Source: a virus (taxonomy: Duplodnaviria > Heunggongvirae > Uroviricota > Caudoviricetes). From it: a stretch of DNA of 33,219 nt. Made by a program: the position numbers and the translations under genes. The notes beneath the pieces are model-generated. The model was given only the letters and a program-made list of their open reading frames with translations, searched no databases and had not been told where the DNA came from. The DNA is taken from IMG/VR virus record IMGVR_UViG_3300046533_000211, positions 1 to 33,219 of that record; one strand, 5' to 3'. Positions 4,677-32,642 of this stretch are shown piece after piece. Positions within the stretch are counted from its first letter, which is position 1, and each line of letters opens with the position of its first letter.

Positions 4677-4725
4677 GGCCTGGTGCCTGGTCGTGCCACC
4701 AATATAACACAGCGCACTAGCAATT
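4677..4725 (-). promoter_or_regulatory. Cassette 1: AATTGCTA-N11-TATATT plus GGCACCAGGCC hairpin
   Basis: Read on the minus strand; box 4718-4725, -10 4701-4706, hairpin core 4677-4687. Confidence 0.85.
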
Positions 4726-4754
4726 ATTCCTGTGGCGCTGGTCACAGGGCGGGA

Positions 4755-4931
4755 TCATGGCTTCGGGCCGACCTGGGCATACTCCTTCGCTATCCGCTGC
4801 AGCATGTCCACCACCCAGTCCATCTTCTGGTTCGTCTGCAAACGGATCGTGCCGTCCGGGTAGACCAGGACCGTCAGAACGGTGTCCTCGGTGTCGATGA
4901 CCTCGACCTTGCGGCCATCCAGGCTGGCCAC
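4755..4931 (-). CDS. Hypothetical protein (58 aa, VASLDGRKVEVID...)
   Basis: Manually translated; GGAG SD; start overlaps the upstream TAG. Confidence 0.55.
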   Translation of the reverse strand: MASLDGRKVEVIDTEDTVLTVLVYPDGTIRLQTNQKMDWVVDMLQRIAKEYAQVGPKP

Positions 4932-5179
4932 TACTTGCTCCTCAGCAGCTTGCGGGTCGCATCCAGCTCAGCGTCACACGCCGAACACTTGTATTCCACG
5001 ATGATCATCAGGCCACGGTCATCGCGCTTGGCCCGCACGTTCTTCTCTAGCCAGTCGAACGGATGCAAGCAGGGCATCTCCAGGGGCGGGGCCGGATTGC
5101 CAGGATCGGGGTTGCGCCGTTGCTCCATCATCTCCAGGAACTCGGCGTAGCTCATCCCCCGGTGGTACTCACGCGCCAT
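4931..5179 (-). CDS. Hypothetical protein with CxxC (82 aa)
   Basis: AGGAGG SD; MPCLH...YKCSAC. Confidence 0.6.
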   Translation of the reverse strand: MAREYHRGMSYAEFLEMMEQRRNPDPGNPAPPLEMPCLHPFDWLEKNVRAKRDDRGLMIIVEYKCSACDAELDATRKLLRSK

Positions 5180-5459
5180 GGTCACCGCCCTCCTTGCCGC
5201 CGCCATACCCTGCCTCGCGCAGGAAACGCTGAGCCGTCATCAGGGGATCGACCACCCCGGTGTAGGCACAGCACTTGGCACACCAGCCCATCTCGATGTC
5301 GTTGGGGTTGTACGAGGTCATCGAGCAGACCGGGCAGGTGATCGAGGGCGGGTCGGTGTAGCGGGGCGGCTTGCCCATCGGGCACCCGCTCTGGCGTCCA
5401 TCCCAGCACCACTCGCGCGGTGTGGGCTTCTGGCAACCAGGACACAGCTTGATGGTCAT
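5169..5459 (-). CDS. Cys-rich putative zinc-binding protein (96 aa)
   Basis: CPGC, CPVC and CAKC motifs; ATGA coupling. Confidence 0.65.
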   Translation of the reverse strand: MTIKLCPGCQKPTPREWCWDGRQSGCPMGKPPRYTDPPSITCPVCSMTSYNPNDIEMGWCAKCCAYTGVVDPLMTAQRFLREAGYGGGKEGGDHGA

Positions 5460-5614
5460 GCGCCCCCCGATGCCACCGAGGACCACTGGGCCAGTCCCGC
5501 AGCGAAGGCGCAGATGATCTGGCCCTGATGATCCCGGCTGATGTCCTCCCAGGCCACGTCCGCACGCTTCCCGTTGCGGAGCGACTCGTAGACGGCCTTC
5601 CCGGCAGCCCTCAT
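5456..5614 (-). CDS. Hypothetical protein (52 aa)
   Basis: ATGA overlaps at both ends. Confidence 0.55.
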   Translation of the reverse strand: MRAAGKAVYESLRNGKRADVAWEDISRDHQGQIICAFAAGLAQWSSVASGGA

Positions 5615-5745
5615 TCGGTCGCTGCCGAGTTCATCTTCCTGTCGAGCCATCCTCGAACTCCTTCCTCGTCATCGTGCGCTTGGCCCTCACGGATCTCGGC
5701 CCGCCAGCGTTCCCTGTCCTCTGCGGTCCAGCCGGTGAGCTTCAT
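5611..5745 (-). CDS. Hypothetical protein (44 aa)
   Basis: ATGA overlaps at both ends. Confidence 0.5.
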   Translation of the reverse strand: MKLTGWTAEDRERWRAEIREGQAHDDEEGVRGWLDRKMNSAATE

Positions 5746-6077
5746 TTCGGGCACCTCGTATGCGTGCGCGGTTTGCCGTTCATCAGGATCGTGAGCATCT
5801 TGCCGCAGCGTGGGCAGGGTGAGTGACCCCGGCGATGGGCGTGCTGCCAGGAACGCACATGGTCCACGTCGTAGCCGGTGGCCCCGCAGATCTTGCAACG
5901 GATCTTCCCGGTCCGCGACCCTGGCAGTGGCTCGAATACCTCCGATACCCAGTAGGCGTCACCACCGATCTCGACACAGGCCCACTGCTCGCCACAATCC
6001 AGGCAGGTCCACCGGTCGCCGTCCACGGCCTCACTCGGGGGTTCACACCAGCCCAGACCCAGCCTGCGGACGCTCAT
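5742..6077 (-). CDS. Multi-zinc-finger protein (111 aa)
   Basis: CLDC, CKIC, HxH and CPRC motifs; TGATG coupling. Confidence 0.65.
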   Translation of the reverse strand: MSVRRLGLGWCEPPSEAVDGDRWTCLDCGEQWACVEIGGDAYWVSEVFEPLPGSRTGKIRCKICGATGYDVDHVRSWQHAHRRGHSPCPRCGKMLTILMNGKPRTHTRCPK

Positions 6078-6376
6078 CAGCCACACCCCGGCAGGGCATC
6101 GCGCACAGCCTGCCCGGTCTGCCAGATGGACTGGCGTCCGTCGCCCTGGTGGAGCCGCTCAGCGATCTCCCCAGGTGACTCCCCGAGGGCGAGCTGGGTG
6201 CAGATGACCCCGTTGAGATCAGGCTGGTCGATGGAGCTGTCCACCCCACCGTTGCCGTACACGTCGGCGTGGGCCTGGCCCTGGCCCAGCGTGAAGCCGA
6301 GGGCGATCCCGCATGCCCAGATGACCATCAGCGTGAACCACAGCAGCCAGCCATGGACGGTGACTCGCTTCCTCAT
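6077..6376 (-). CDS. Secreted/membrane protein, DUF732-like (99 aa)
   Basis: N-terminal hydrophobic segment ending AHA-D; ICTQLALGESP...C pattern. Confidence 0.6.
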   Translation of the reverse strand: MRKRVTVHGWLLWFTLMVIWACGIALGFTLGQGQAHADVYGNGGVDSSIDQPDLNGVICTQLALGESPGEIAERLHQGDGRQSIWQTGQAVRDALPGCG

Positions 6377-6630
6377 GTGCCCTCCTTCGCGGCCCGTTTC
6401 ACAGCAGCCTGTTCCTCGAATATCTTCTGGCTCGGGCTGACAATCTCGCGCTGGGGCGCGGTGATGAAAGGCCGAGCGCTGATGCCGGGGTCGGCGTAGT
6501 AGGTGTGCTGGTGCTCCTCCAGCACCTCGACCCAACATGTCAGCCGTAGCAGGATCTGGAGCACCCGACTGGTGTCCGCGTTCGCCAACGCCTCGATGAT
6601 CTCCTCACGGATGGACTCGATCTCGCTCAC
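6373..6630 (-). CDS. Hypothetical protein (85 aa)
   Basis: GTGA and ATGA overlaps. Confidence 0.6.
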   Translation of the reverse strand: MSEIESIREEIIEALANADTSRVLQILLRLTCWVEVLEEHQHTYYADPGISARPFITAPQREIVSPSQKIFEEQAAVKRAAKEGT

Positions 6631-6995
6631 AGGTCCAGCACCCGATCTGCCGTCATGCGGACATTGACCGGCTTCGGGCCATCGAGGTCCAAGTAGGCCG
6701 TGCGGGCCGAGGCCAGCATCGCCAGCACTCCTGCATCGAGGGCCTTGGCCGGGATGGGCAGAGCGGCCAGGCGGCTCAGGATGTCCGTCAGGTGCTTGCA
6801 CTTGCGATGGTGAATCCAGCCTGGACATGAGCAGCACCACTGCCCATTGGCACGCCGCTGCGACACCAGGTAGAACGACGACGACGAGGTCGACTTCACG
6901 GTGAAGCGGTTGGTGTAGTCCCGGTTGTCGGGCTTAAGGCTGGAGCCGATCTGCTGAGCGATCAGCTCTACCTGTGCCCTGCTTTCGTGGGCCAT
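6627..6995 (-). CDS. SWIM zinc-finger protein (122 aa)
   Basis: YLVSQ...WCCSCPGWIHHRKCKH is CxC-xn-CxH; GAAGGAG SD; preceded by a hairpin. Confidence 0.8.
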   Translation of the reverse strand: MAHESRAQVELIAQQIGSSLKPDNRDYTNRFTVKSTSSSSFYLVSQRRANGQWCCSCPGWIHHRKCKHLTDILSRLAALPIPAKALDAGVLAMLASARTAYLDLDGPKPVNVRMTADRVLDL

Positions 6996-7018
6996 TCGTA
7001 CTCCTTCGGTTAGTGACC

Positions 7019-7029
7019 GGCCTGGTGCC
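7019..7029 (-). promoter_or_regulatory. Hairpin motif copy 2 (GGCACCAGGCC), no clear promoter
   Basis: Flanks GATC/GGTC extend the stem; SD follows. Confidence 0.75.
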
Positions 7030-7095
7030 GATCCTGGTCTGAATTGACCACCGGCACACAGGGACCGGGCGGGCGTCCCTGTGGCCGAGTTCCAC

Positions 7096-7437
7096 TCATC
7101 CCTTCGGATGCCACGTCCTGCCACCATCGTGGCTGTGGGTGCCTGCGGCGACCACCTTGCGGTCGACCTGCACTCCAGCGATCTGCTCAGCGCGCTGGAT
7201 GGCCATCCGGGTGGCGGCAGAACCCCTGATCCGCAGCGTCCGATAGATGCACGCATCCGTCATCCGCTTCCGGTCGTCATCGCTGATCCCGATGAAGGTG
7301 ATGGCACCCTGCGGGCCGACCTTCACCTGGACCTTGCGGGCCGCGATGAGCTTGTCCACAGCGGTCACCGCCTTCTTGACCTCCTCGACCCGCTGGGTCA
7401 GCGTCTGGTCGGGCATCCGCATCGTGTCGCATGGCAT
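7096..7437 (-). CDS. Conserved hypothetical protein of the AAA+ module (113 aa; MPCDT...HSHDGGRTWH)
   Basis: AGGAGG SD; MPC N-terminus, DAC and His-rich C-terminus suggest metal binding. Confidence 0.75.
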   Translation of the reverse strand: MPCDTMRMPDQTLTQRVEEVKKAVTAVDKLIAARKVQVKVGPQGAITFIGISDDDRKRMTDACIYRTLRIRGSAATRMAIQRAEQIAGVQVDRKVVAAGTHSHDGGRTWHPKG

Positions 7438-7439
7438 GA

Positions 7440-8420
7440 TCAGACCTCCTTCTCGTTCTCGATGTTCTGGATGGCTGCCTCAAGCTCGGCCACCACCACT
7501 GGGTTGTCGGCGTTCTTCTCGATGTCGGCCCTGATCTGTGCGATGGCCGCGCCGCTGTCGTCACCCATGCCGGGTGCCGTCTCTGTGATCTCATCCCAGC
7601 CTTCGGGCAGCGGCGCTGAGTCGTCCATCTCCAGCTCTGGCGTGGCAGGCCCGCCGTACTGGATGTTCTCGTACATCGACTCGGTCAAGTCCAGGCCCCG
7701 CACATCCACGTCAGGAGTGCCGATGGCGACCTCGTCCTCAATGTCCAGGAAGGACACGCGGGCCTTGTCGATCTGCTCGATGGCCACCTTGTCGATCTCG
7801 ATACCGACCTGCTCGCCTGCCTTCGCCATCTTGGTGGCAGAGGAGCGGGCCACCTTCACGGCTTCCTCCAGGCGCTCGCGCGCTGCGGGGGACAGCATCT
7901 CGCCGATCTGCTTGGCCTTGGCGGCAGCGTCACGGACCTGCTTGACATCCAGGTTCGCCAAGCCCTGTTGCATGTCCTCCATGAGGTCCCGCAGCTCGGC
8001 GCTGATGGCCCGAACAGCTTCCACGTCATCCTGGGCAATGCGCCCGAAGATCACGTTGACGGAGAGTCGCGTCAGCCGCGCCTGCTCGTTGAACCTCTGA
8101 GCCAGTGCACGGGCCTCAGCGATGGCAGCGATCAACTCGGGTGCCCGGTCCTCTGGGCAGAGCTGGCCGAACGCCGACTGGGCGCACACGGTCTTGATCA
8201 TCGAGCGGGCCTTGCTGCGGGTCTTGATGGCAGCCTCATGCTCCTCGGGGTCAATGATGATCCGGGTCGTCTCCCAGCGGGCCACTTCCTCGCCTGCCTC
8301 ATTGATGTGGGTGCCCTCGATCTCACGGGTCCCGTAGCTGATGTTCCCCTTCACGCTGGTGGTTACTGCCACCAGAAGGCCCGGACGGAGCGTCTGGATG
8401 GGGGTGGTGATGGTTGACAT
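7440..8420 (-). CDS. Alpha/beta plus coiled-coil protein of the AAA+ module (326 aa)
   Basis: Long open frame; GAGAGGA SD; has its own cassette; acidic tail. Confidence 0.8.
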   Translation of the reverse strand: MSTITTPIQTLRPGLLVAVTTSVKGNISYGTREIEGTHINEAGEEVARWETTRIIIDPEEHEAAIKTRSKARSMIKTVCAQSAFGQLCPEDRAPELIAAIAEARALAQRFNEQARLTRLSVNVIFGRIAQDDVEAVRAISAELRDLMEDMQQGLANLDVKQVRDAAAKAKQIGEMLSPAARERLEEAVKVARSSATKMAKAGEQVGIEIDKVAIEQIDKARVSFLDIEDEVAIGTPDVDVRGLDLTESMYENIQYGGPATPELEMDDSAPLPEGWDEITETAPGMGDDSGAAIAQIRADIEKNADNPVVVAELEAAIQNIENEKEV

Positions 8421-8449
8421 GATCTGGTGCTTTCCTCTCGGTTGTGACC

Positions 8450-8517
8450 GGCCTGGTGCCAGTCCTGTTGTCGAATATAGCCTACCGGGGTAGCAATTGA
8501 CAAGCTACCCCGGTAGG
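8450..8517 (-). promoter_or_regulatory. Cassette 3: TTGTCA-ATTGCTA-N11-TATATT plus hairpin, inside a 14-bp inverted repeat
   Basis: Box 8491-8498, -10 8474-8479, core 8450-8460; IR arms 8481-8494 and 8504-8517. Confidence 0.85.
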
Positions 8518-8525
8518 CCGGGTTC

Positions 8526-10118
8526 CTACAGATCCAGCTTGCGGGCTGGGCTGTCGGCCTCGACTGCCTTGGCGGCAGCCTGGGGGCTGGTGGCAGGACG
8601 GGCACGGCCTGCCCACTCCTTGCGGAGCCGGTCGATCTTCTCGGCAGCTGTCTTGGCCAGCGGCACGATGGTCTTGGCTATCCGCAGGATGTCATCCGTG
8701 GTGACCTCGCGGGCATCATCCGCAAAGGAGGTGAACATCGCCTCGGGCACCAGGGCAGCCAGCTCGGCACCCGTGAAGGTATCGGTTGCGTCTGCAATGG
8801 CAGGCAGGTCGATGCCGATGGTGTCGGCGTCCCGCCCGTTGGCCTTCAGTGCTGCAGCCATGACGGCCTCGCGCTCGTCGTGAGTGGGCACGTCGACCCA
8901 CCAGATCTCGTCGAACCTCCCCTTCCTCATCAGCTCCGGGGGCAGCTTGCTGGCGTCGTTCGCCGTGGCAATCACGAACGCGGAACCTTGGCGGTCCTGC
9001 ATCCAGGACAGGATGGCACCCAGTGCGTCGGCAGACACACCACCATCGCCCTGTTCACCCGTGGAACCGGCGAGCGCCTTCTCGATCTCATCCAGCCAGA
9101 CCACGCAGCGACCAATCGCCTCGATCACGCTGAGCGCCTTGCGGAGGTTGCCCTCGCTCTCGCCCACGTACTTGGACTTGAGCGCACCCAGGTCCAGCCG
9201 GATCAGCGGGACGTTCCACTCAGCCGCAAGGGCCTTGGCGCTGTAGGACTTGCCACAGCCTGGGACACCGATGACCATCGTGCCCTTGGGAGCCTGCAGG
9301 CCATAGGCCCGAGCAGCGGGGCTGAAGGCCAGCGACCGGCTGACGAGCCAGGCCTTGTAATCGGGCATGCCGCCCACGATGGACAGGCCACCGGCTGGCG
9401 GGTCGATCCACTCCAGGACACCCTCGCGGGCGATCACACGCTTCTTCTCGCTGGCGATGGTGGCCGGGTCGATCTTGCGGAGCTGGACCAGTGAGCGCGC
9501 GAAGCAGGCTTGCGCTTCCTCACCACTCAGGCCCACGGCTGCGTCGATGGCAGCATCCCGCTGGCCGTTGACTGCCGTCCTCTGCAGCTCCTCGGGCAGG
9601 GATGACACGGTGGCGTCCAGCAGGGCCGCGATCTCCTCACGGTCAGGCAGCGGCCACTCGATCACGGTTGCGTGACCAGCCAGCTCAGCGGGAATGTCGC
9701 CACTGGGGCTGATCACGATCACAGCCTGGGCGTTCTCACGGGCCTGGCCAGGAAGCCAGCGGGCCAGGTTGCGCAGGCGACGCAGTGTCATGGCGCTTGT
9801 CGGACCACTCAGCCACACTGGCAGGTCGCGCATGATCCACACGCCACGCTCACCACTGGTGTCCTTGATGATGTCCAGCGCGCCATCGGGATCGCCCACA
9901 CCCTGGTCTGTGGTCCTGCCGCTGATGCTGGCCACACCTTGGGCAATGTCCCAGGTCCTGGCCAGGTAGCCCGCTGAGGCAGCAGCCTCGAACAGGTACT
10001 TCTCGACCCGCGCTTCCTCGCGACTTACCACCCAGAGGAGTGGGTTGCGGGCACGCAGGAGGGCAGCCACATCAGCGGCAACGGTCTGCGAACGGGTTAC
10101 ATCTGCTTTCACGCTCAT
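8526..10118 (-). CDS. AAA+ ATPase, Ycf46-like (degenerate N-terminal AAA plus active C-terminal AAA; 530 aa)
   Basis: Walker A GVPGCGKS, pore loop KYVGESE, Walker B VVWLDEIEK, SRH ATANDASKLPPELMRKGRFDE. Confidence 0.92.
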   Translation of the reverse strand: MSVKADVTRSQTVAADVAALLRARNPLLWVVSREEARVEKYLFEAAASAGYLARTWDIAQGVASISGRTTDQGVGDPDGALDIIKDTSGERGVWIMRDLPVWLSGPTSAMTLRRLRNLARWLPGQARENAQAVIVISPSGDIPAELAGHATVIEWPLPDREEIAALLDATVSSLPEELQRTAVNGQRDAAIDAAVGLSGEEAQACFARSLVQLRKIDPATIASEKKRVIAREGVLEWIDPPAGGLSIVGGMPDYKAWLVSRSLAFSPAARAYGLQAPKGTMVIGVPGCGKSYSAKALAAEWNVPLIRLDLGALKSKYVGESEGNLRKALSVIEAIGRCVVWLDEIEKALAGSTGEQGDGGVSADALGAILSWMQDRQGSAFVIATANDASKLPPELMRKGRFDEIWWVDVPTHDEREAVMAAALKANGRDADTIGIDLPAIADATDTFTGAELAALVPEAMFTSFADDAREVTTDDILRIAKTIVPLAKTAAEKIDRLRKEWAGRARPATSPQAAAKAVEADSPARKLDL

Positions 10119-10141
10119 GAGATCTCCATCTGTCTTGACCA

Positions 10142-10194
10142 GGCCTGGTGCCTGATCTCCTGTCGAGGATATGTTACCCCGCTAGCAATTGCAA
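10142..10194 (-). promoter_or_regulatory. Cassette 4: TTGCAATTGCTA-N11-TATCCT plus hairpin
   Basis: Box 10183-10190, -10 10166-10171, core 10142-10152. Confidence 0.85.
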
Positions 10195-10240
10195 GCTCAC
10201 TGAGCGATTGCCTGCACAGAGTTGAGGGTATCCACCGGGT

Positions 10241-10483
10241 ATGACAACTCAGGACCGCAAGCAGGATCGCAACCAGTTCGATGGCGATGCAGCCAATTTC
10301 GCCAACACCGCCCGTGCCCAGCTCAGTGCGTTCATCGACAACCTGGAGCAGATGGTCAGCAAGGGCCGAGATCTCCTGGTGGACATGGACGCGCGACTGG
10401 AGGACTTCGATGGCGGGAGCCGTCGCCTCACGGAGACGGAGACGGAGAAGCGGGAGAAGGTGCGTGCCGGAACTCGTTCTTGA
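10241..10483 (+). CDS. Hypothetical helical protein on the opposite strand (80 aa)
   Basis: Amphipathic, protein-like composition; no SD (possibly leaderless); 56-nt convergent overlap with the HTH gene. Confidence 0.5.
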   Translation: MTTQDRKQDRNQFDGDAANFANTARAQLSAFIDNLEQMVSKGRDLLVDMDARLEDFDGGSRRLTETETEKREKVRAGTRS

Positions 10484-10694
10484 TCTGGAACAGCCGCGCT
10501 GAACTCAGGCCCGTGACACCCATCAGCTGGCCCGAGGTGATGCCGTAGCGCATGGCCTCACGGATGAGTCCTCGCAGCTCCAGCTCGGCATCGAGGGCCT
10601 CCTGGCGCTTCTTGTCCAGCCGCACCGAGGCCTTGGAGATCGCGGCCATCCGGGCCACAGCCCACTCGGAAGTGTTGCGTTTGCGGTTACCCAT
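10428..10694 (-). CDS. Helix-turn-helix DNA-binding protein (88 aa)
   Basis: LIREAMRYGITSGQLMGVTGLSSARLFQIK is a typical phage HTH segment. Confidence 0.65.
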   Translation of the reverse strand: MGNRKRNTSEWAVARMAAISKASVRLDKKRQEALDAELELRGLIREAMRYGITSGQLMGVTGLSSARLFQIKNEFRHAPSPASPSPSP

Positions 10695-10864
10695 CGGTTT
10701 GCTGGCCTTCCTGGTGGCGGGAACCACCGCTGGAGGGTGAACGTAAAAACATACGTTGACCTGGCGAAACGGCGAGTTTAAGAGGGGTGGTGTGGTGGTG
10801 CCCACGAAGGACAAAAGCCGCTCTCGGGGCCGCTGAGGGCCGGCAATCGCTACCTGGGTAGCTA

Positions 10865-11026
10865 TTAACGATCATTAGCTACATCCTCGTCGGGCGCGTC
10901 CCCGAGGTCCTCGATCAGGCCGAGGGCGAGCAGCAGGCTGACCACCCGAAGGCGCAGCCAGTGCAGGCCTTCAGCGATGGTCATGTCTCGCCAGTCGCCG
11001 TATGGCTCGGGGCTGTATCCCGGCAT
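10865..11026 (-). CDS. Hypothetical protein (53 aa, MPGYSPEPYG...)
   Basis: Manually translated; GAGGAG SD. Confidence 0.55.
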   Translation of the reverse strand: MPGYSPEPYGDWRDMTIAEGLHWLRLRVVSLLLALGLIEDLGDAPDEDVANDR

Positions 11027-11217
11027 GGCTCCTCTATCTCGTAGACGACCCCCCTGGCGACCTCCCCGTGCAGCAGGCCCTCATGCTCACCGCAGCGCCA
11101 CCAACGGTTGCCGTTGGAGTCAATGACCGCCGAGGTGGCGGGCTGGCGGCAGCGGGCGTTTCCGCCCATGCCGAAACTGCACTCCTTGAACATGTCAGTG
11201 ATCCTCACCATCGTCAT
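10981..11217 (-). CDS. Hypothetical protein with Cys/His motif (78 aa)
   Basis: CRQPAT...WWRCGEH; ATGA coupling. Confidence 0.55.
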   Translation of the reverse strand: MTMVRITDMFKECSFGMGGNARCRQPATSAVIDSNGNRWWRCGEHEGLLHGEVARGVVYEIEEPCRDTAPSHTATGET

Positions 11218-11357
11218 GAGCGGCCCATCCCCGCCCAGTCATCGAAGCTGCGATCCAGACCGGAGTAGTTCAACGGCTCCTCTGCCGCATCCTCCTTCAC
11301 GCCAAGGGTGGCCTTGCGCTCCTCGCGGTCCTGCCCGCACACGATGCAGGTGCTCAC
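11214..11357 (-). CDS. Hypothetical protein (47 aa)
   Basis: GTGA overlap; CIVC. Confidence 0.45.
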   Translation of the reverse strand: MSTCIVCGQDREERKATLGVKEDAAEEPLNYSGLDRSFDDWAGMGRS

Positions 11358-11680
11358 TTGATCACCTCCCCCGGCAGCACGTTCTCGGGCGTGCTCACGC
11401 TGATGCTGAAGGCAGTGAACGGGCGGTTCGGCCTGCCGTCCGGGCGCACCGGGTTCCGTGGGTCCACAGAGCGCCACAGCTCGAACGCTTCCGTGGAGGT
11501 GTAGCGGGTGGCCTCATCGAGGTTGGGTGTGGTGCGCAGGTGGGCCATCATCACCTGGCCGGTGAGCGGCTCCCTTCCGTCACGTGACGGATCGAACTCG
11601 ACCACATACTGCCCGTCGAACCCAGTCACCCCGCCATTGATCAGCCCGACCACCTGGATGACCACCTCAGTGCTGTCCAT
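11354..11680 (-). CDS. Hypothetical protein (108 aa)
   Basis: GAGGAG SD; ends ...RPDGRPNRPFTAF. Confidence 0.65.
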   Translation of the reverse strand: MDSTEVVIQVVGLINGGVTGFDGQYVVEFDPSRDGREPLTGQVMMAHLRTTPNLDEATRYTSTEAFELWRSVDPRNPVRPDGRPNRPFTAFSISVSTPENVLPGEVIK

Positions 11681-13102: not shown

Positions 13103-13120
13103 GGTTCCTTTCGGGTGGTT

Positions 13121-13160: not shown

Positions 13161-13185
13161 GGTGACTAGCTAGCGCCGCAGCAGG

Positions 13186-13521: not shown

Positions 13522-13544
13522 ACTCATTCCTTTCGTTGACCCCT

Positions 13545-13555
13545 GGCCCAGTGCC
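13545..13555 (-). promoter_or_regulatory. Hairpin motif copy 5 (GGCACTGGGCC)
   Basis: Flanks GACCTC-G / A-GGGGTC pair; intergenic, 5' of the SD. Confidence 0.75.
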
Positions 13556-13580
13556 CGAGGTCCTGCCGGGACTGTCCCGG

Positions 13581-14546: not shown

Positions 14547-14572
14547 GATTCCCTCCTCAGGGACCAGTGCTC

Positions 14573-14623
14573 GGCCTGGTGCCGAACTGAGATCATTAAA
14601 CCATACCGGAATAGCAATTGCTA
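14573..14623 (-). promoter_or_regulatory. Cassette 6: palindrome TAGCAATTGCTA, N11, TTTAAT plus hairpin
   Basis: Palindrome 14612-14623, -10 14595-14600, core 14573-14583. Confidence 0.85.
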
Positions 14624-16277: not shown

Positions 16278-16300
16278 GATGATTCCTTTCGATCGGGGCT

Positions 16301-16353
16301 GGCCTGGTGCCTGCCCTCCTGGTCATTAAAGCACAGCGGGCTAGCAATTGCCA
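16301..16353 (-). promoter_or_regulatory. Cassette 7 upstream of ku
   Basis: AATTGCTA 16342-16349, N11, TTTAAT 16325-16330, core 16301-16311. Confidence 0.85.
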
Positions 16354-16822: not shown

Positions 16823-16849
16823 GCGTGACGACTCCAATCGTTGTGGTCT

Positions 16850-16899
16850 GGCCTGGTGCCAGTTCCTGTGAATCAGGATAGCACACCCCACTAGCAATT
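16850..16899 (-). promoter_or_regulatory. Cassette 8
   Basis: AATTGCTA 16892-16899, N11, TATCCT 16875-16880, core 16850-16860. Confidence 0.85.
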
Positions 16900-17113: not shown

Positions 17114-17137
17114 GTCTGCTCCTGGGGGTTCTGGGCT

Positions 17138-17186
17138 GGCCCTGTGCCTGCCCGATACCTAATTAAAACACAGTCGGGTAGGCATT
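17138..17186 (-). promoter_or_regulatory. Cassette 9 (variant AATGCCTA-N11-TTTAAT; GGCACAGGGCC)
   Basis: Same geometry as the other copies. Confidence 0.75.
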
Positions 17187-17545: not shown

Positions 17546-17568
17546 ATCAGCACCCTTTCGTTGGGCCT

Positions 17569-17616
17569 GGCCTGGTGCCAGACTGTCACCCATTAAAGCA
17601 CACCCCGCTAGCAATT
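17569..17616 (-). promoter_or_regulatory. Cassette 10
   Basis: AATTGCTA 17609-17616, N11, TTTAAT 17592-17597, core 17569-17579. Confidence 0.85.
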
Positions 17617-17618
17617 GA

Positions 17619-21933: not shown

Positions 21934-21958
21934 GTGATATTCCTCCCGTTGTCCGACC

Positions 21959-22007
21959 GGCCCGATGCCAGGTCTGGAGTCTAACTATAGCTAGCGCGGT
22001 AGCATCT
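21959..22007 (-). promoter_or_regulatory. Cassette 11 (variant AGATGCTA-N10-TATAGT; GGCATCGGGCC)
   Basis: -10 21984-21989, core 21959-21969. Confidence 0.7.
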
Positions 22008-23433: not shown

Positions 23434-23456
23434 TGTGATTCCTTTCGCTGGACTCT

Positions 23457-23505
23457 GGCCGGTTGCCATGAGTAGCCCTTCGCGCCAGGACCCGAAGGCC
23501 CTGGC
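23457..23505 (-). promoter_or_regulatory. Hairpin motif copy 12 (GGCAACCGGCC) preceded by a cUUCGg hairpin
   Basis: Core 23457-23467; GCCAGGGCC-TTCG-GGTCCTGGC at 23484-23505 on the minus strand. Confidence 0.7.
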
Positions 23506-23525
23506 ACTCAGGCAGCTCACGTGTG

Positions 23526-23861: not shown

Positions 23862-23887
23862 GGTGGTGCTTCCTTTCGTATGGACCT

Positions 23888-23898
23888 GGCCTAGTGCC
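23888..23898 (-). promoter_or_regulatory. Hairpin motif copy 13 (GGCACTAGGCC)
   Basis: Flanks GATCT/AGGTC give an 8-bp stem. Confidence 0.75.
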
Positions 23899-23907
23899 AG
23901 ATCTCGC

Positions 23908-24005: not shown

Positions 24006-24016
24006 GGCCCGGTGCC
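24006..24016 (-). promoter_or_regulatory. Hairpin motif copy 14 (GGCACCGGGCC), weak flanks
   Basis: Core match in a non-coding gap; may be chance. Confidence 0.4.
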
Positions 24017-24249: not shown

Positions 24250-24271
24250 GGTGTCTCCTTCGGTTTGGCCT

Positions 24272-24319
24272 GGCCTCTTGCCTGGCTCCTGACTAATATA
24301 GCATAGCGGGGTAGCAATT
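24272..24319 (-). promoter_or_regulatory. Cassette 15
   Basis: AATTGCTA 24312-24319, N11, TATATT 24295-24300, core GGCAAGAGGCC 24272-24282. Confidence 0.85.
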
Positions 24320-24335
24320 ATTCCTGTGATCCGGG

Positions 24336-24506
24336 TCACAGCTCCCGGTATCGTGGCGGGTCGTAGTCATAGCTGGTGATCAGCACGTTGCCAGCCTCGG
24401 TGAGGTAGGCCCGTGCGAAGGTCGGGTCGAATGAGCTGTCATCGACCATCACAGCCGCATCCTGGTCACAGGTCTGCAGCACAGCGATCAGCTCCTTGAC
24501 GGTCAT
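24336..24506 (-). CDS. Hypothetical protein (56 aa, MTVKELIAVL...)
   Basis: Typical phage MTV.ELI..L N-terminus; AAGGAGG SD. Confidence 0.65.
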   Translation of the reverse strand: MTVKELIAVLQTCDQDAAVMVDDSSFDPTFARAYLTEAGNVLITSYDYDPPRYREL

Positions 24507-25107: not shown

Positions 25108-25126
25108 CTTGACTCCTGTTCTGATC

Positions 25127-25180
25127 GGCCTGGTGCCGGTCTGGTGAGACAGTACCACAGTGCCTAGTCAGGTAACAATT
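25127..25180 (-). promoter_or_regulatory. Cassette 16 (AATTGTTA-N18-TACTGT; GGCACCAGGCC)
   Basis: Exact hairpin core 25127-25137; spacer longer than in the other copies. Confidence 0.7.
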
Positions 25181-25484: not shown

Positions 25485-25981
25485 CAGAGCGTCCCAGCGC
25501 TGGCCGGGTGCCCAGGTGGCGGGTTCACCTCCACAGGCACCGTCCCCGAGGATGGCGTCAGAGCGATCTGGCAGGCCAGCACGGCACTCCTGGGCCGACC
25601 CATTCCACCAGCCCACACGTCGATGTGGTTCCCACCGCAGGCAGCGCAGGAGTCCTCCACGATCAGGTACTTCGCCAGGTACGGCAGGTAGAGCCGGGTG
25701 CCGGGGGGCCACCGCCCACCGGCCACCGTCGTCGGGTTGTCGTAGGTGCCCACTCCCCCAGCCTCGGAGTGGCGCGGGGCTGGGCCGGGGTAGCGGATGC
25801 GGGCGCTGTACGGCGGGTCGTTGTCGGGGTAGCCGTAGAAGGTCAGCGTGACACTGGCCGTGCTGTCTGCCGATGCCCTACAGGCCAGCTTCTCGCCGAG
25901 TCCCGTGAAGATCAGGACGATGATGATCATCCCCACCACGAACCAGGCCGTCAGGTTGATCTTCTGCCACACGGTCATCAC
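25481..25981 (-). CDS. Membrane-anchored 3D / RlpA-like double-psi beta-barrel protein (166 aa)
   Basis: N-terminal TM; LTFYGYPDNDPP...GGVGTYDNPTTVA...YLIVEDSC...HIDVW. Confidence 0.7.
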   Translation of the reverse strand: MMTVWQKINLTAWFVVGMIIIVLIFTGLGEKLACRASADSTASVTLTFYGYPDNDPPYSARIRYPGPAPRHSEAGGVGTYDNPTTVAGGRWPPGTRLYLPYLAKYLIVEDSCAACGGNHIDVWAGGMGRPRSAVLACQIALTPSSGTVPVEVNPPPGHPASAGTLC

Positions 25982-28392
25982 CGGCCTGCGATGGCCACGG
26001 TGTTCAGCCGTTCCAGCTTGTCCCAGGAGAACTCGGCACCCTTGAGCACCCGGTACAGGCAGGCGTAGAGCAGGTACACGCGCATCAGCTCATAGATCGG
26101 TCGATAGAGCGGGACCACCAGCAGATGCACCAGACTCTCCTTCGCAATCGCCACGGCGGTGATGGCGATGATCGTGTGCATGACGAGCACCACCAGCGCG
26201 AACGCGACGATTGGATGCCAATCCCCCTGCGCCGCCGTGATGCCTGCCACCACCAGCAGGATGGGAAGAAATAGCAGGTTCATCAGGAGCTGAGCCACCG
26301 AGTACGGCATGGTGACCATGCCGAGCACACCGTAGCTGGGCCGGAACAGCATCGCCTTGTTCTTCCACATCACCTGGAAGTTGCCGAACATCCAGCGCTT
26401 GCGCTGCTTGAGTAGCGGGACCACGGTCTCGGGTGCCTCGGTGTCGCAGATCGCGTGGTTCTCATGCAGCACCGCATAGCCCAGCCGCTGGAACGTCATG
26501 GCCGCGTCGGCATCCTCGGCCAGGGTGTCCTCACTGAACCCACCGATTCGCTCCAGGGCGACCCGTCTCCAGGCCGAGCAGGCACCCGGCACGATGCCCA
26601 CCGCACCGACCATCATCTCGGCCATGCGGATGATGCAGATGCCGTTGAGGTACTCCAGCGACTGCCAGGCGGTGAGGATGTTGTTGCGGTTGCCCACCTT
26701 GACGTGACCGGCCACCGCGCCCACGATCTTGCCCCCGTGCACACCCGTGATGAAGTGGCGGGCCAGCTTGCGGATGGTGTCCTTGCGGAACAGGGTGTCG
26801 GCGTCCATGGTCATGATCACGCTGCTGCGTGGGTCCGCATGCCTGACGGCATTGTTCAGGGCCGTCGACTTCCCGGCGTTGCGCTGGTCCACCACCTTCA
26901 GCTGGGGCCAGTCGTAGGCCTGCAGAAGTGACAGCGTGTCATCCTTCGAGCCATCGTTGACCGCAATGACCTCGAAGCGGTTCGCTGGGTAGTCACTCTC
27001 GCGCAGCATGTCCAGCGTGCGCGTGATGACCTTCTCCTCGTTATAGGCAGCCAGGCACACACTGACGAAGGGCAGCTCATCCTCCGGGGTATCCGGCCAG
27101 GCCTTCCTGCGCTGCCGCCACTCGTTGATCACCGACAGGATCAGGTAGAGGCCGGTCAGGATGAGCATCGACCCCACACCGAACCAGAACACCGCCGTGA
27201 GCGCCTTCCGTGGGAGCACGTGAACGGTCTGAATGAAGAACAGCGTGGCCCGGTCGGAGAACGATGGCGTGACGTGCCGGGGCAGGTCTCGCTGAGGCAG
27301 GATGTAGCCCGCCGTGGCGAACTTGTAGCCCTGCGCCTTGGCCTCATGGATCAGCTTCTCCAGCATCGCCACCGTCCCGGCGCGGCTCCTCCCACCGGCA
27401 TCGTGCATGATCACGACGTGCCCGTTGCCATCGAGCTGTGGGACAGGCACCTCCCGGCCCTGAGCATCGAACTCCCAGTCATGGCTGTCGGTGTCGAAGA
27501 GGACCTGGAGGTAGCCGAGCTGCTGCGACTCCAGCTGGGCCAGGCTGTTGACCTCCGGTTGCCCGGTGGGGATGCGGAAGATCGGCGAGGCATAGCCAGC
27601 CACGGCCCGCAGCACACGGTCGGTCAGGTTGATCTCCTGCTGGTTCTGGAAGTCAGAGTGGGCGTCGAACGTCTCGGGGTGCGTCATGGTGTGGTTGCCC
27701 ACCATGTGGCCCTCTCGGATCATCCGCTGGACCAGCTCGGGGTGGTTGGCCACGTTCTGCCCCACCACGAAGAACGTCGCAGGGACATGCTCGCGGGCCA
27801 GCACATCGAGGACCTCCCTGGTCCACACCGGGTCCGGGCCGTCATCGAAGGTCAGGATTAGGGTGCGACCAGGGACCGAGCCGTAGCGGTCCACCGCAAA
27901 GGCATTGCTTCCGATGGTCTGGACCTCGTAGTCGTTGGCGTTCCTGATGAACTCACCAGTGACCGCATCGACCAGCCTGACCGGGGGCGGGGGTGGTGGG
28001 GCGGGCGGCTCAGGCATCACCATGTCAGGCACGCCGTCACCATCGAGGTCATCAGGAATGCCGTCACCGTCGTAGTCGGGTGCCGGGATCGGCTGCAGCA
28101 GAGCAGGATCAGGCCCAGGTGGCGCGCCGCTGCCGGTGTGCTCACGCTCCACCCGTACCAGCCGAGTGAAGATGCCATGATCCTGATCGCCGACCAGTGG
28201 GAGATTGTCATGCTCACCCAGCGTGCGGCGTGCCCAGCCCTCATCGGAGTGGGCACCCCGCACCGGGGAGAACACAGAGGGCAGCAGGATGGCCCCGGCC
28301 CCTCCGATCAGCAGCAGCAGCAGGAACACACTGAGCGCCACCCGAGGTAGCCGCTTCCCGCTCTTGTCGTAGAAGATGGGCGGGCCGCTCAT
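25978..28392 (-). CDS. Bifunctional polysaccharide deacetylase (NodB/CE4) and GT2 glycosyltransferase (IcaA/PgaC-like), 804 aa
   Basis: CE4 motifs TFDDGP, HTMTH, FRIP, DSHDW, IMHDAGG; GT2 motifs AYNEE, NDGSKD, GKSTALN, MDAD, EDAD, QRKRW; C-terminal TMs. Confidence 0.93.
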   Translation of the reverse strand: MSGPPIFYDKSGKRLPRVALSVFLLLLLIGGAGAILLPSVFSPVRGAHSDEGWARRTLGEHDNLPLVGDQDHGIFTRLVRVEREHTGSGAPPGPDPALLQPIPAPDYDGDGIPDDLDGDGVPDMVMPEPPAPPPPPPVRLVDAVTGEFIRNANDYEVQTIGSNAFAVDRYGSVPGRTLILTFDDGPDPVWTREVLDVLAREHVPATFFVVGQNVANHPELVQRMIREGHMVGNHTMTHPETFDAHSDFQNQQEINLTDRVLRAVAGYASPIFRIPTGQPEVNSLAQLESQQLGYLQVLFDTDSHDWEFDAQGREVPVPQLDGNGHVVIMHDAGGRSRAGTVAMLEKLIHEAKAQGYKFATAGYILPQRDLPRHVTPSFSDRATLFFIQTVHVLPRKALTAVFWFGVGSMLILTGLYLILSVINEWRQRRKAWPDTPEDELPFVSVCLAAYNEEKVITRTLDMLRESDYPANRFEVIAVNDGSKDDTLSLLQAYDWPQLKVVDQRNAGKSTALNNAVRHADPRSSVIMTMDADTLFRKDTIRKLARHFITGVHGGKIVGAVAGHVKVGNRNNILTAWQSLEYLNGICIIRMAEMMVGAVGIVPGACSAWRRVALERIGGFSEDTLAEDADAAMTFQRLGYAVLHENHAICDTEAPETVVPLLKQRKRWMFGNFQVMWKNKAMLFRPSYGVLGMVTMPYSVAQLLMNLLFLPILLVVAGITAAQGDWHPIVAFALVVLVMHTIIAITAVAIAKESLVHLLVVPLYRPIYELMRVYLLYACLYRVLKGAEFSWDKLERLNTVAIAGR

Positions 28393-28676
28393 TAGTCGGC
28401 ACCATTCCAGCTCGCGGTGTCCTCATCGAACGCACCGACCGTCCAGACGGGTGGGGTGCCATCGGTGGCGAAGACATTCCACCAGCCATGCCCATTGGAC
28501 ATGATCAGGTGGGCCTCGTAGCCCTCCTCGATAGCTATCGTATTGCCGGTGATCACTGCCGCGAACCCGGCCTGTTCCAGTGCGCGCTGTGCTGCCCCGA
28601 TCTGGGGTATGGCGGCAATGGTCTTGGCCACCAGCTCAGCGGTGACGACGGACGATAGCATGTTTGCTTCAGACAT
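28392..28676 (-). CDS. Hypothetical protein (94 aa)
   Basis: AAGGAAG SD; TAATG coupling to the GT2 gene. Confidence 0.65.
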   Translation of the reverse strand: MSEANMLSSVVTAELVAKTIAAIPQIGAAQRALEQAGFAAVITGNTIAIEEGYEAHLIMSNGHGWWNVFATDGTPPVWTVGAFDEDTASWNGAD

Positions 28677-28704
28677 GTGTGTGTGCTTCCTTAGCTAATT
28701 GGGC

Positions 28705-28733
28705 GGCCCTTTGCCGACCAAGTCATAGCATAG
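28705..28733 (-). promoter_or_regulatory. Cassette 17 (TATGCT -10; GGCAAAGGGCC hairpin)
   Basis: Core 28705-28715 with TTGGTC/GCCCAA flanks; upstream box not recognisable. Confidence 0.7.
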
Positions 28734-30954: not shown

Positions 30955-30981
30955 TTCCGTCGGTGTCCTTTCGTTACTCCC

Positions 30982-31026
30982 GGCCCCTTGCCAAGGTGTG
31001 ATGAGTATAACACCGCACTGTCAATT
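30982..31026 (-). promoter_or_regulatory. Cassette 18 (AATTGACA-N9-TATACT; GGCAAGGGGCC)
   Basis: Box 31019-31026, -10 31004-31009, core 30982-30992. Confidence 0.75.
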
Positions 31027-31047: not shown

Positions 31048-31073
31048 ACGCCCCCAGCCGAAGCTGGGGGCGT
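31048..31073 (-). terminator. Intrinsic terminator with UUCG tetraloop
   Basis: ACGCCCCCAGC-TTCG-GCTGGGGGCGT then TCTCTT on the minus strand, 15 nt after the stop at 31088. Confidence 0.85.
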
Positions 31074-31087
31074 GTCCCTTCAGTGAG

Positions 31088-31564
31088 TTACTCGGCTGCT
31101 GCCCGCGCCTCGCGCCTCGCGGCGACGATGGCCTGGGTGGCCAGCTCAGCGATGCCAGCGACCTGCTCAGTCAGATCGTCCAGCTGTTTGTTCAGCTGAA
31201 CGGTCATCTTCACCGACTCGGGCAACTCGCCCTCGCGGTCCTCCAGGAATGCGTAGTGCTTCTTGCGTCCCCGCCGAACTCCGTCCTCGATCCGCCTGGC
31301 ATGCAGAGCGGAGTCGATGACATATTGGACCTCACCCGCGAGGGTGTAGGTGTGGCCAGTGGCTGGGCAGGCCCACGGGATGATCTGCCCATCGGCCTCA
31401 GCCAACTCGCGGATCTTGCGGAGGATCGTCCGCGCCGACTTGCTGTTGTTGAGGTTCAGCACCGACAGCAGCTGCGCGTAGGTCAGCGGCGTGTTCATGT
31501 ACTGAGCAACCAGCAGGCGGTAGCCCTCCTTGGCCTGGAAGGCAAGAGCTTTCCGACTGGCCAT
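31088..31564 (-). CDS. Putative winged-helix protein (158 aa)
   Basis: LTYAQLLSVLNLNNSKSARTILRKIRE...HTYTL; TGATG coupling. Confidence 0.65.
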   Translation of the reverse strand: MASRKALAFQAKEGYRLLVAQYMNTPLTYAQLLSVLNLNNSKSARTILRKIRELAEADGQIIPWACPATGHTYTLAGEVQYVIDSALHARRIEDGVRRGRKKHYAFLEDREGELPESVKMTVQLNKQLDDLTEQVAGIAELATQAIVAARREARAAAE

Positions 31565-32442
31565 CAGACAGCTCCGTCGTTCAGCAGAGCGGCGAGTTCG
31601 TCGTCCATCGACTTGCCCTGAGCAGCCTCGCGGATGGCATCGAGCACCATCTGCACACTCTCCGCTTCGGTGAGCACCGCATCCCGCGCCTGGCCCTCGA
31701 ACTGACCCAGGCCCCGGATGTCGACCGCGTAGCGCAGCACCGACTGCAGTGCCCGCTTGGCTGCCCGGAATGCAACCACCGCGTTCTCCAGATCAGCGGT
31801 TGAGGTGGCGAAGTCGTCCTTGATCACCCGGCCCTTCTTGGGCTTGACCTTGGCCTCGTCCTCGGCGATCTTCTCGTCGATGGCCTGGCTTGCCGCAATG
31901 GCTGACTTGGGCCTCGACTTGACTGCTGTCGAGACCACCTTGTCAACCGACTTGCGTGGGGCCTTCTCTGGCTCCTGCGGCTCCTCGACGTAGGCCTGGG
32001 CAACCTTCTCATCGGATAGCAGCTGGTCCACGATCTCGGCCTTCTGCTCCACCGACTTGCCCGCCAGCTGCTTGTCGAACGATCCCGTGGTGTGACCTGA
32101 CGGAGGCCATTCGAGATCGGGTGCGATGAACGGGTCACCCGGTGAGACCGGATAGACCCGACCGTTGCGCTTGCGCTTGGTCAGCTCGATGGCTTCCGTC
32201 CACCTGTCGCGATAGAGCTTCACGGTGTCCCTGCTGCGCAGGCCGTGAATCTTCAGCTTCGCGAACTGCTCGAAGCTGAGGACTTCTCTAGAAGTAGAGA
32301 GGTCGGTCCGTTTGCCCTGGCCAGGGGCTTCAGTGAAGGCGTACACGATGGCGGCACGCTCCCATTCCGACGCCGTGACGATCTCACCGAGGCTGGTCAA
32401 CCGGGTGGTTGCCTGCTCAAGGGTCTTCGGGATGTTGCTCAC
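31564..32442 (-). CDS. Phage hypothetical protein with GKRTDL motif (292 aa)
   Basis: Long frame; GTG start overlapping the uORF stop; PGQGKRTDL. Confidence 0.75.
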   Translation of the reverse strand: MSNIPKTLEQATTRLTSLGEIVTASEWERAAIVYAFTEAPGQGKRTDLSTSREVLSFEQFAKLKIHGLRSRDTVKLYRDRWTEAIELTKRKRNGRVYPVSPGDPFIAPDLEWPPSGHTTGSFDKQLAGKSVEQKAEIVDQLLSDEKVAQAYVEEPQEPEKAPRKSVDKVVSTAVKSRPKSAIAASQAIDEKIAEDEAKVKPKKGRVIKDDFATSTADLENAVVAFRAAKRALQSVLRYAVDIRGLGQFEGQARDAVLTEAESVQMVLDAIREAAQGKSMDDELAALLNDGAV

Positions 32443-32477
32443 GTGGCGACCCCCCTGTTCTTCTTCAACAATTTCAT
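32439..32477 (-). CDS. 12-aa leader ORF (MKLLKKNRGVAT)
   Basis: AGGAAGG SD right after hairpin 19; GTGA overlap with next gene. Confidence 0.45.
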   Translation of the reverse strand: MKLLKKNRGVAT

Positions 32478-32496
32478 GCCTTCCTGTTTGGCCCCC

Positions 32497-32543
32497 GGCC
32501 GTTTGCCGAGGTGTGACCACTATAACTCACCCCGGTGTCAATT
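32497..32543 (-). promoter_or_regulatory. Cassette 19 (AATTGACA-N11-TATAGT; GGCAAACGGCC)
   Basis: Box 32536-32543, -10 32519-32524, core 32497-32507. Confidence 0.85.
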
Positions 32544-32597
32544 GCTTCCCCACCTACGACACCAATTTTGGTGGAGTAGAAACCGTTCCCCGGCAGC

Positions 32598-32642
32598 TTG
32601 TCAGACCCCCGAAGTAGGGTCAGGGCACCACGGCATCAGGCC
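32598..32642 (+). promoter_or_regulatory. Cassette 20 on the + strand (TTGTCA-N11-TAGGGT; GGCATCAGGCC)
   Basis: Same geometry in reversed orientation, upstream of the SD and ATG 32658. Confidence 0.75.

Follow-up and report, generated by a model that had tools for sequence, protein, structure and literature searches.

The closest known counterparts of the element reported here come from two phage groups. In T4-type phages, promoter early stem-loop (PeSL) cassettes carry a stem-loop that may sit over the -35/-10 boxes, between them, or upstream of them, or else immediately ahead of the start site; it terminates upstream transcription, and its stem is made up of G/C runs, no conserved loop having been reported (Arbiol et al. 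2010, PMC2839356). In Cluster K mycobacteriophages, the start-associated sequences (SAS) are 11 to 19 copies of a 13-bp, linear and asymmetric sequence (GGGATAGGAGCCC) that contains the Shine-Dalgarno (SD) sequence and lies 3 to 7 bp from the start; their function was left open, with a host or phage reader suspected, and the extended SAS, which carry 17-bp inverted repeats without compensatory changes, were interpreted as DNA sites (Pope et al. 2011, PMC3203893). In addition, it is well established that 5′-terminal stem-loops stabilize mRNAs of bacteria (Emory, Bouvet and Belasco 1992; Bouvet and Belasco 1992; both listed in PMC3997798). Here, we describe a family of predicted leader hairpins with the core GGCANNNGGCC (GGC-ANNNG-GCC) in a 33,219-nucleotide stretch of viral DNA (the window), which forms the first 33,219 bases of a linear, 97,219-base viral contig from IMG/VR (record IMGVR_UViG_3300046533_000211). 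Judged from the sequence, this family is a real and strongly non-random RNA-level element and belongs with the leader and regulatory cassettes already known from phages. The literature was searched both for the 11-mer and for a comparable described element, and nothing relevant was found.

The hairpin family and its covarying stem

Within the window, GGCANNNGGCC occurs 24 times, versus 4.36 ± 2.29 times in dinucleotide shuffles (none of 100 shuffles reached 24), and all 20 coordinates and strands reported in an initial annotation of this DNA carry it. The whole contig contains 36 matches against 13.5 ± 4.1 in first-order Markov simulations, and this excess therefore corresponds to the true hairpin family. 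When paired flanks are required (positions 2 to 5 all paired, or three of them plus the closing pair), 19 copies remain on the 97-kb contig, where 1.01 ± 1.00 are expected (maximum, 4; 100 first-order Markov simulations), and 18 of the 19 lie just 5′ of a start codon in sense orientation. Once bulged or offset lower stems are included, start-associated copies total approximately 27 (19 in the window and 8 elsewhere on the contig; Table 1), the looser ones folding with a bulge or an internal loop. All of them are sense oriented, on leftward genes and on rightward genes alike (32632, 35918, and 37738 being the rightward copies), just as the initial annotation had it when it stated that the element follows transcription direction. 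When 26 copies were used to build a covariance model, the model recovered these plus 93491, and nothing else scores above ~15 bits on either strand of the contig.

The structural module (44 to 75 kb) holds no copy at all. Among gaps of at least 40 nt, about half carry a copy in the leftward block of the window versus 4 of 47 elsewhere (approximate figures, from rough gene calls). The four window matches beyond those of the initial annotation (16629+, 19677+, 24768+, and 25502-) lie inside coding sequence, lack complementary flanks, and are as numerous as chance predicts. Two of the 20 originally reported copies are weak: 24006, which has neither complementary flanks nor a convincing nearby start and is doubtful or degenerate, and 32632 (+), which adds only ~2 pairs to a core whose pairing probability is 0.59 (its orthologue in G2, a related phage introduced below, also keeps the core). 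One match outside the window, at 76669 (+), was rejected as a copy because it belongs to a long terminator-like inverted repeat. A long inverted repeat (contig positions 76675 to 76720; arms of ~14 bp, AGAGGCCCCCGGAC ... GTCTCCGGGGGCCTCT) adjoins the cassette at 76605, with a box-like promoter facing the opposite way; it may terminate transcription in both directions or form a short antisense unit.

Copies were aligned without gaps, anchored on the core, and covariation was scored against shuffled controls and against controls in which the 3′ partner was slid. For the 26 copies from this contig, 75.6% of alignment cells are paired versus 62.4% after shuffling, with a covariation score of 0.339 versus 0.127 that none of 500 shuffles reached; for 42 copies from three phages, the corresponding values are 82.4% versus 68.6% and 0.352 versus 0.135 (again 0 of 500 shuffles), and sliding the 3′ partner by 1 to 3 columns in this larger set reduces the score to 0.04 to 0.15. 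Four pairs beneath the core covary (7:25, 8:24, 9:23, and 10:22), each with four to five standard pair types. Above them sits an invariant tip of three pairs (G-C, G-C, and C-G) plus the loop positions A14 and G18: G11, G12, C13, A14, G18, G19, and C21 are identical in all 42 copies, which come from phages with ~70% DNA identity, and a single copy (22822 in the relative G1) has a G.U pair within the core. The loop consensus is A-[C/A/T]-N-[A/G/C]-G.

Next to the core, 8 of the 42 copies have A.A and 7 have C.A, in agreement with the recurrent A.A mismatch already reported there. Outside this mismatch position, G.U-type pairs outnumber A.C-type pairs by 17 to 7 (one-sided p = 0.03), as expected if the sense strand folds as RNA. 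The hairpin comprises 7 to 8 bp, with a predicted stability of -9 to -17 kcal/mol; it forms with a probability of ~1 in 40 of 42 leader contexts, while the SD is left mostly unpaired (mean, 0.60). Searches of both window strands with the Rfam covariance models, at the gathering threshold, gave no matches. Covariation, strand bias, and sense orientation together show an RNA hairpin, transcribed as part of the 5′ leaders of non-structural genes, and the initial proposal that it works as RNA, as a stem with a conserved pentaloop, is supported by a covariation score far above both kinds of control and by the excess of G.U-type pairs.

The promoter-hairpin-SD cassette

What the initial annotation missed is that the hairpin belongs, in most copies, to a rigid promoter-hairpin-SD cassette, whose order is a TTG(C/A)(T/C)A box, 11 nt, a -10-like TAnnnT, 7 to 10 nt, the hairpin, an A/C-rich, G-poor spacer of 4 to 10 nt, the SD, and the start codon. 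In 15 of the 19 window copies, a -10-like hexamer (TAnnnT or TTTAAT) ends 11 to 14 nt before the core, which places the base of the stem 7 to 10 nt after the hexamer. In most of these promoters, just 11 nt separate the -10 from an upstream TTGCTA, TTGACA, or TTGTCA box, and a scan with the standard 16- to 18-nt spacer detects only 2 of the -10-bearing candidates. Downstream, 9 to 15 nt separate the end of the core from the SD and 15 to 29 nt (mode, 23) separate it from the start codon. The spacer between stem base and SD contains 32% A, 38% C, 18% G, and 13% T, versus 17, 33, 32, and 18% in the genome, in line with the A/C-rich spacer noted earlier. Transcription from sigma-A promoters starts ~7 nt downstream of the -10; with the stem base 7 to 10 nt beyond that hexamer, the transcript would start 1 to 3 nt before the stem, which would itself begin at about +2. 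From this distance we infer that the hairpin is the 5′-terminal stem-loop of its transcript. A 5′-terminal stabilizer is a stem-loop within ~0 to 4 unpaired nucleotides of the transcript's 5′ end, and among the functions first proposed for the element, that of a 5′-end stabilizer fits this geometry best.

At four window copies (7019, 13545, 23457, and 23888), neither a -10-like hexamer with the usual spacing nor an ATTGCTA box is present, which agrees with their earlier description as promoterless, and the copy at 35918, outside the window, is promoterless as well. Behind three of these copies (13545, 23457, and 23888) stand genes with signal-peptide- or lipoprotein-like hydrophobic starts (13186 to 13521, 22873 to 23418, and 23526 to 23861, all on the minus strand), and each of the three copies is preceded by a second GC-rich hairpin. 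These genes may form a differently regulated subset encoding secreted or membrane proteins.

The promoters have features of their own. The box, often within the near-palindrome TAGCAATTGCTA, is centered near -30, ~11 to 13 bp from the -10, and some copies have a hexamer just upstream (TTGCAA or TGGCAA) that would give a normal 17-nt spacer. In the related phages G1 and G2, the same box lies either 11 nt or 19 to 21 nt from the -10, i.e., about one helical turn more. The MotA-dependent middle promoters of T4 have the same box/-10 geometry, and by this analogy the box promoters suggest a phage activator rather than a normal -35. Two proteins are candidates for redirecting host RNA polymerase to them: one of 251 aa (22236 to 22991, minus strand) with a WhiB domain (E = 4e-20) and, at its C-terminus, a weak AP2-like match that does not reach the Pfam cutoff (E = 0.006), and one of 151 aa (11667 to 12122, minus strand) with an RNA polymerase alpha C-terminal domain (E = 6e-15). 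Directly upstream of the 16850 promoter, a strong 12-bp GC hairpin is followed by TTTAATT (16903 to 16932, minus strand), so that the order at this site is terminator, promoter, and leader hairpin, which is closer to that of PeSL.

With PeSL, the cassette shares its basic composition (a repeated intergenic unit of a promoter, here a putative one of the host type, a stem-loop, and an SD) and its setting, in front of small and mostly unknown genes of the plastic part of the genome; correspondingly, the copies here are confined to non-structural blocks. It departs from PeSL in that the hairpin begins 7 to 10 nt after the -10, as an inferred part of its own transcript and with no U tract, and in that an invariant tip is carried on a covarying stem. 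Like SAS, the element is oriented, multicopy, restricted to non-structural genes of actinobacteriophages, and set at a fixed short distance before the start; unlike SAS, its core GGCANNNGGCC excludes the SD, from which it is 9 to 15 nt away, and lies 15 to 29 nt from the start, and unlike those of the extended SAS, its arms covary with compensatory changes. The initial annotation had set the element apart from Cluster K SAS, and a comparison with the published description (PMC3203893) shows this to be correct.

Related phages and their hairpin tips

The source contig is ~80% complete (CheckV estimate), with a GC content of ~64%, and represents an uncultured soil phage of the siphovirus type with a portal, a prohead protease, and a protein resembling the HK97-type capsid protein (this capsid-like protein is ~80% conserved in two relatives). 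Its host is an actinobacterium, and the phage encodes a WhiB-domain protein and Ku. ARAGORN found no tRNA and no tmRNA. The DNA of this phage is present in several rhizosphere metagenomes, and no RNA run is listed as containing it. Contigs from four other rhizosphere runs, compared with window positions 4600 to 24400, match the window exactly in the long pieces shown; since no difference is listed at any hairpin, there is no microdiversity with which to test compensation inside one hairpin. An 8-kb piece of the phage gave no megablast match among GenBank phages, and a search of GTDB genomes for a prophage or host, with capsid and AAA+ alignments, returned no phage relative and only distant cellular AAA+ proteins. 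The non-structural region also encodes an 804-aa protein (25978 to 28392, minus strand) in which a polysaccharide deacetylase domain is fused to a family-2 glycosyltransferase domain (PgaB-like plus PgaC-like); tblastn with this protein gave distant domain matches only.

Two IMG/VR relatives, G1 (55,959 bases) and G2 (63,688 bases), share 65 to 80% DNA identity with the contig where alignable and have a mosaic gene content. Both carry the same hairpin at the same position (11 copies used from G1 and 4 from G2), and their loops include AUAGG, AAAAG, AACAG, and AAGCG. In five orthologous gene pairs with ~50 to 60% protein identity, both phages of the pair keep the hairpin core, whereas the lower stems differ; some of the differences change both partners at once, for example from A-U to G-C or from U.G to A-U. 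Covariation together with a core kept in diverged orthologues argues for RNA and against a DNA operator. The orthologue of the 37738 gene in G1 has lost the hairpin while the five others keep it; PeSL-carrying phages likewise differ from their relatives as to the genes that are preceded by the cassette.

At least seven start-associated hairpins of this design, with an equally invariant but different tip, occur in a more distant relative, L016 (IMGVR_UViG_3300036832_001138; 7885 to 12982, plus strand). The tip consists of a closing G-C pair and the hexaloop CUUGCC (G-CUUGCC-C). The stems, of 5 to 6 bp, are built from many different GC pairs and stand ~16 nt after an ATAGTG -10-like box and ~8 to 10 nt before the SD GAAGGAGTC. 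Across seven aligned copies, 97.6% of cells are paired versus 62.2% in shuffles, the score is 0.889 versus 0.229 (0 of 500 shuffles), and five pairs covary. As L016 combines the same design with a different tip, the leader-hairpin architecture is more widely shared than any one tip. The L016 loop, CTTGCC as DNA, is the reverse complement of the GGCAAG found in some copies here; we regard this as a coincidence, the pairing registers being different.

Wider searches added little to this set. Among 37 loci around relatives of the AAA+ ATPase (most with 56 to 70% protein identity, four near 30%), of which L016 is one, there were three weak covariance-model matches and a motif count at chance level, and the tip was lacking. 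Two IMG/VR pattern scans, one for the box plus the hairpin and one for the hairpin plus GGAGATTC, yielded almost exclusively chance matches, the only true relatives being G1 and G2. A Ku search found one distant locus, and the capsid protein alone found one fragment; the capsid alignment identified four more contigs with no model match, which, at 5 to 49% completeness, are uninformative about absence.

Table 1. Positions of the predicted leader hairpins and associated promoter-like sequences. Copies are named in the text by the position of their core; G1 and G2 are the related phages described in the text
Feature	Position	Strand	Details
Leader hairpin gacc-a-GGC ACCAG GCC-a-ggtc	4672..4692	-	31.1 bits; start of 294-aa gene 23 nt after core
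Promoter-like ATTGCTA-N11-TATATT	4701..4724	-	-10 ends 13 nt before core of the 4677 hairpin
Leader hairpin, no recognizable promoter	7014..7034	-	start codon 23 nt on
Leader hairpin of 326-aa gene	8445..8465	-	promoter ATTGCTA-N11-TATATT at 8474-8497
Leader hairpin of AAA+ ATPase gene (8526-10118)	10137..10157	-	promoter ATTGCTA-N11-TATCCT at 10166-10189
Leader hairpin, 7-bp lower stem, no promoter	13538..13562	-	other GC hairpin ahead; signal-peptide-like downstream gene
Leader hairpin	14568..14588	-	promoter ATTGCTA-N11-TTTAAT at 14595-14618; hairpin kept at G1 orthologue
Leader hairpin of Ku gene (15465-16277)	16296..16316	-	promoter at 16325-16348
Leader hairpin, looser stem	16845..16865	-	promoter at 16875-16898; terminator-like hairpin 16903-16932 upstream
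Leader hairpin gggc-a-GGC ACAGG GCC-a-gccc of 54-aa gene (16949-17113)	17133..17153	-	
Leader hairpin of 70-aa gene (17333-17545)	17564..17584	-	promoter at 17592-17615
Leader hairpin of 227-aa gene	21954..21974	-	-10 TATAGT at 21984-21989; hairpin kept at G1 orthologue
Leader hairpin, offset stem, no promoter	23452..23472	-	downstream gene with signal-peptide-like start
Leader hairpin, no promoter	23883..23903	-	downstream protein begins MKKIVIGGCAAAA, lipoprotein-signal-like
Doubtful core match	24006..24016	-	9.6 bits
Leader hairpin	24267..24287	-	promoter ATTGCTA-N11-TATATT at 24295-24318
Leader hairpin of 126-aa gene	25122..25142	-	-10 TACTGT at 25149-25154
Leader hairpin ttgg-t-cGGC AAAGG GCCg-c-ccaa of 94-aa gene (28392-28676)	28698..28722	-	
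Leader hairpin of 271-aa gene	30977..30997	-	ATTGACA box plus TATACT at 31004-31025
Leader hairpin cctc-GGC AAACG GCC-gggg	32492..32512	-	ATTGACA-N11-TATAGT at 32519-32542
Leader hairpin of 302-aa gene (exonuclease according to the initial annotation), only rightward window copy	32627..32647	+	weak lower stem; TTGTCA-N11-TAGGGT upstream; core also in orthologous leader of G2
Copies outside the window (contig coordinates)	35918, 37738, 42675, 76605, 77419, 80531, 93491, 96791	+, +, -, -, -, -, -, -	

Proposed function of the hairpin and its possible reader

The explanation that we favor, with moderate confidence, is a portable promoter-hairpin-SD cassette whose 5′-terminal leader hairpin has its tip read by a lineage-specific factor. 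The hairpin would cap the 5′ end and shield the message from 5′-end-dependent decay (by RNase E and RNase J in actinobacteria), and it would insulate the ribosome site by preventing upstream RNA from pairing with it. As a sequence-specific address, the invariant tip would be read by a trans-acting factor, most likely phage encoded, which would co-regulate the stability, processing, or translation of the whole gene set; at the promoterless copies, a processing step would create the 5′ end. Stability alone explains neither eight positions fixed in 42 copies on a freely varying stem, nor the core kept in the exonuclease leaders of two phages whose stem is weak, nor the different tip of L016; together, these observations point to a reader that is sequence specific and differs between lineages, and so is probably a phage protein. 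Such a reader might protect the message, cleave it, or hinder or favor ribosome entry. The initial suggestion that the loop is bound by a factor is thus plausible, given the invariant tip, its conservation in orthologues, and the different tip of L016, although no factor was found, and the list of small basic proteins contains no convincing reader. Two paralogous small proteins (88 aa, 10428 to 10694, minus strand; 82 aa, contig 42750 to 42998, plus strand) have the basic N-terminus M-x-NRKR, and tblastn matches both of them in G2 (43% and 64% identity, respectively), whereas Pfam matches neither; that they might be nucleic-acid binders is speculative.

We also entertain, tentatively, a more specific proposal in which the tip serves as an address tag that is read by an RNA-binding protein of the phage, the two forming a regulon-wide post-transcriptional switch and a lineage-specific "self" label for phage mRNA. 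Such a switch would mark non-structural messages for survival, translation, or timed shut-off, with host messages treated otherwise, and tag and reader would co-evolve, so that related phages would come to have different tags (GGC-ANNNG-GCC here, G-CUUGCC-C in L016). The RegA and RegB sites of T4 are linear and overlap the SD or the start codon; like them, the hairpin is a small RNA signal through which an entire set of genes could be controlled by a phage protein, but neither these sites nor boxB (see below) share its sequence, copy number, or fixed SD spacing.

Several points weigh against a 5′-terminal hairpin with a specific reader. The 5′ end of the transcript is placed by promoter geometry, and at least four window copies (7019, 13545, 23457, and 23888) plus 35918 are promoterless, so that a primary 5′-terminal position cannot hold there. 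Among 45 proteins searched with Pfam, none matched an RNA-binding domain, a nuclease, or an RNA polymerase. The exact GGC-ANNNG-GCC type was found in only three contigs and is missing from the 37 related loci, and a hairpin of 7 to 8 bp and -9 to -17 kcal/mol could stabilize a message without any factor. Moreover, because the copies of a single genome are paralogous, the significance of the covariation is overstated by the shuffle control; the slid control and the comparison of orthologues are sounder.

Four competing explanations were weighed, and we rank them, in order of falling likelihood, as a plain stabilizer, a processing site, an antitermination signal, and a DNA-level site. That the hairpin is a purely structural 5′ stabilizer or insulator with no specific reader, its tip owing its uniformity to common descent, cassette copying, or favorable thermodynamics, seems to us unlikely, if still worth serious attention: the stem lies at the 5′ end as placed by geometry, folds stably in nearly all contexts with the SD open, and is part of a cassette portable between genes, and Pfam found no RNA-binding protein. 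Copying, however, would homogenize the lower stem too, yet the stem varies with compensation while the tip stays invariant; the exonuclease leader keeps its core in two phages though its lower stem is weak; and the varied GC pairs of the L016 stems indicate that stability needs no single fixed sequence. The stabilizing leaders of ompA and papA, for their part, are single-gene elements with no sequence-specific tip, in contrast with one hairpin type in front of ~27 genes that retains eight fixed positions across diverged phages. We give less credence to the hairpin as the recognition and cleavage site of a host or phage endoribonuclease (with Cas6/Csy4-like or RegB-like logic) that would cut polycistronic early RNA into units, each with a protective hairpin at its beginning or end. 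Promoterless copies inside operons (7019, 13545, 23457, and 23888), a fixed tip on a variable stem of the kind typical of hairpin-specific RNases, and a position just 5′ of each ribosome site that suits monocistronic units speak for such an enzyme, but most copies directly follow their own promoter, where processing is unneeded, and Pfam offered no nuclease candidate among the 45 proteins. RNase III substrates need roughly two helical turns, and the stem is far shorter than that.

Antitermination near the promoter, either boxB/nut-like, with a phage N-like protein acting on RNA polymerase, or put-like, with the RNA acting directly on the polymerase, is in our estimate improbable, and this option of the initial annotation fits poorly. 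A pentaloop hairpin transcribed first from nearly every promoter, and two small paralogues with the basic N-terminus M-x-NRKR, are what it has to offer. The boxB of lambda and P22 has a GNRA-like pentaloop on a 5-bp stem and occurs once per early operon, with boxA and an arginine-rich N protein. The element here resembles it as a pentaloop on a short stem and as a small RNA signal located close to where early messages begin; it differs in its A-[C/A/T]-N-[A/G/C]-G loop, in which A-N-N-N-G is not GNRA-like, in having ~27 copies instead of one per operon, some of them promoterless, and in showing no N-like family by Pfam, which gave nothing for the basic proteins, and no boxA, although none was searched for. 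The tightly fixed distance of 4 to 10 nt from stem base to SD would be a needless constraint on an antitermination signal, and terminator-like sites to override are few (5 versus 7.1 expected). Least probable by our reckoning, to the point of being remote, is a site that acts as DNA, whether an oriented operator like the Cluster A stoperators or a DNA hairpin promoter like that of the N4 virion RNA polymerase. A short, asymmetric, transcription-oriented core in many copies in short intergenic gaps of non-structural genes would suit an operator, and a hairpin serving as promoter would explain the copies that lack a sigma-type promoter. Stoperators (the sites of L5 gp71) are 13 to 14 bp of conserved asymmetric DNA, bound by the repressor with no hairpin requirement; by contrast, only 8 positions are fixed here, and the flanks are variable but complementary, covarying rather than being conserved. 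The wobble pairs favor sense RNA, and the asymmetry of A14 and G18 breaks the dyad that a dimeric DNA binder could use. In N4, the virion RNA polymerase reads DNA hairpin promoters, whereas the large proteins scanned here contain no phage RNA polymerase or RNA polymerase domain, and the portal, protease, and capsid genes are of the siphovirus type.

Relative to PeSL and SAS, what is new is a clean RNA-level signature, namely, a fixed tip on a covarying stem, at the probable start of the message and in front of ~27 genes. Even as a plain stabilizer, the cassette would be a compact natural expression part for high-GC hosts, combining a promoter, a 5′ cap hairpin, an open spacer, and a strong SD, and it is a useful landmark for gene starts and transcription units in the genomes of uncultured actinophages. 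If the tip is read by a phage factor, as in the explanation that we favor, the hairpins would constitute a multigene RNA operator system in actinobacteriophages whose specificity changes between lineages; and if tag and reader do form a switch, this could also explain the long-unexplained start-associated sequences of actinobacteriophages.

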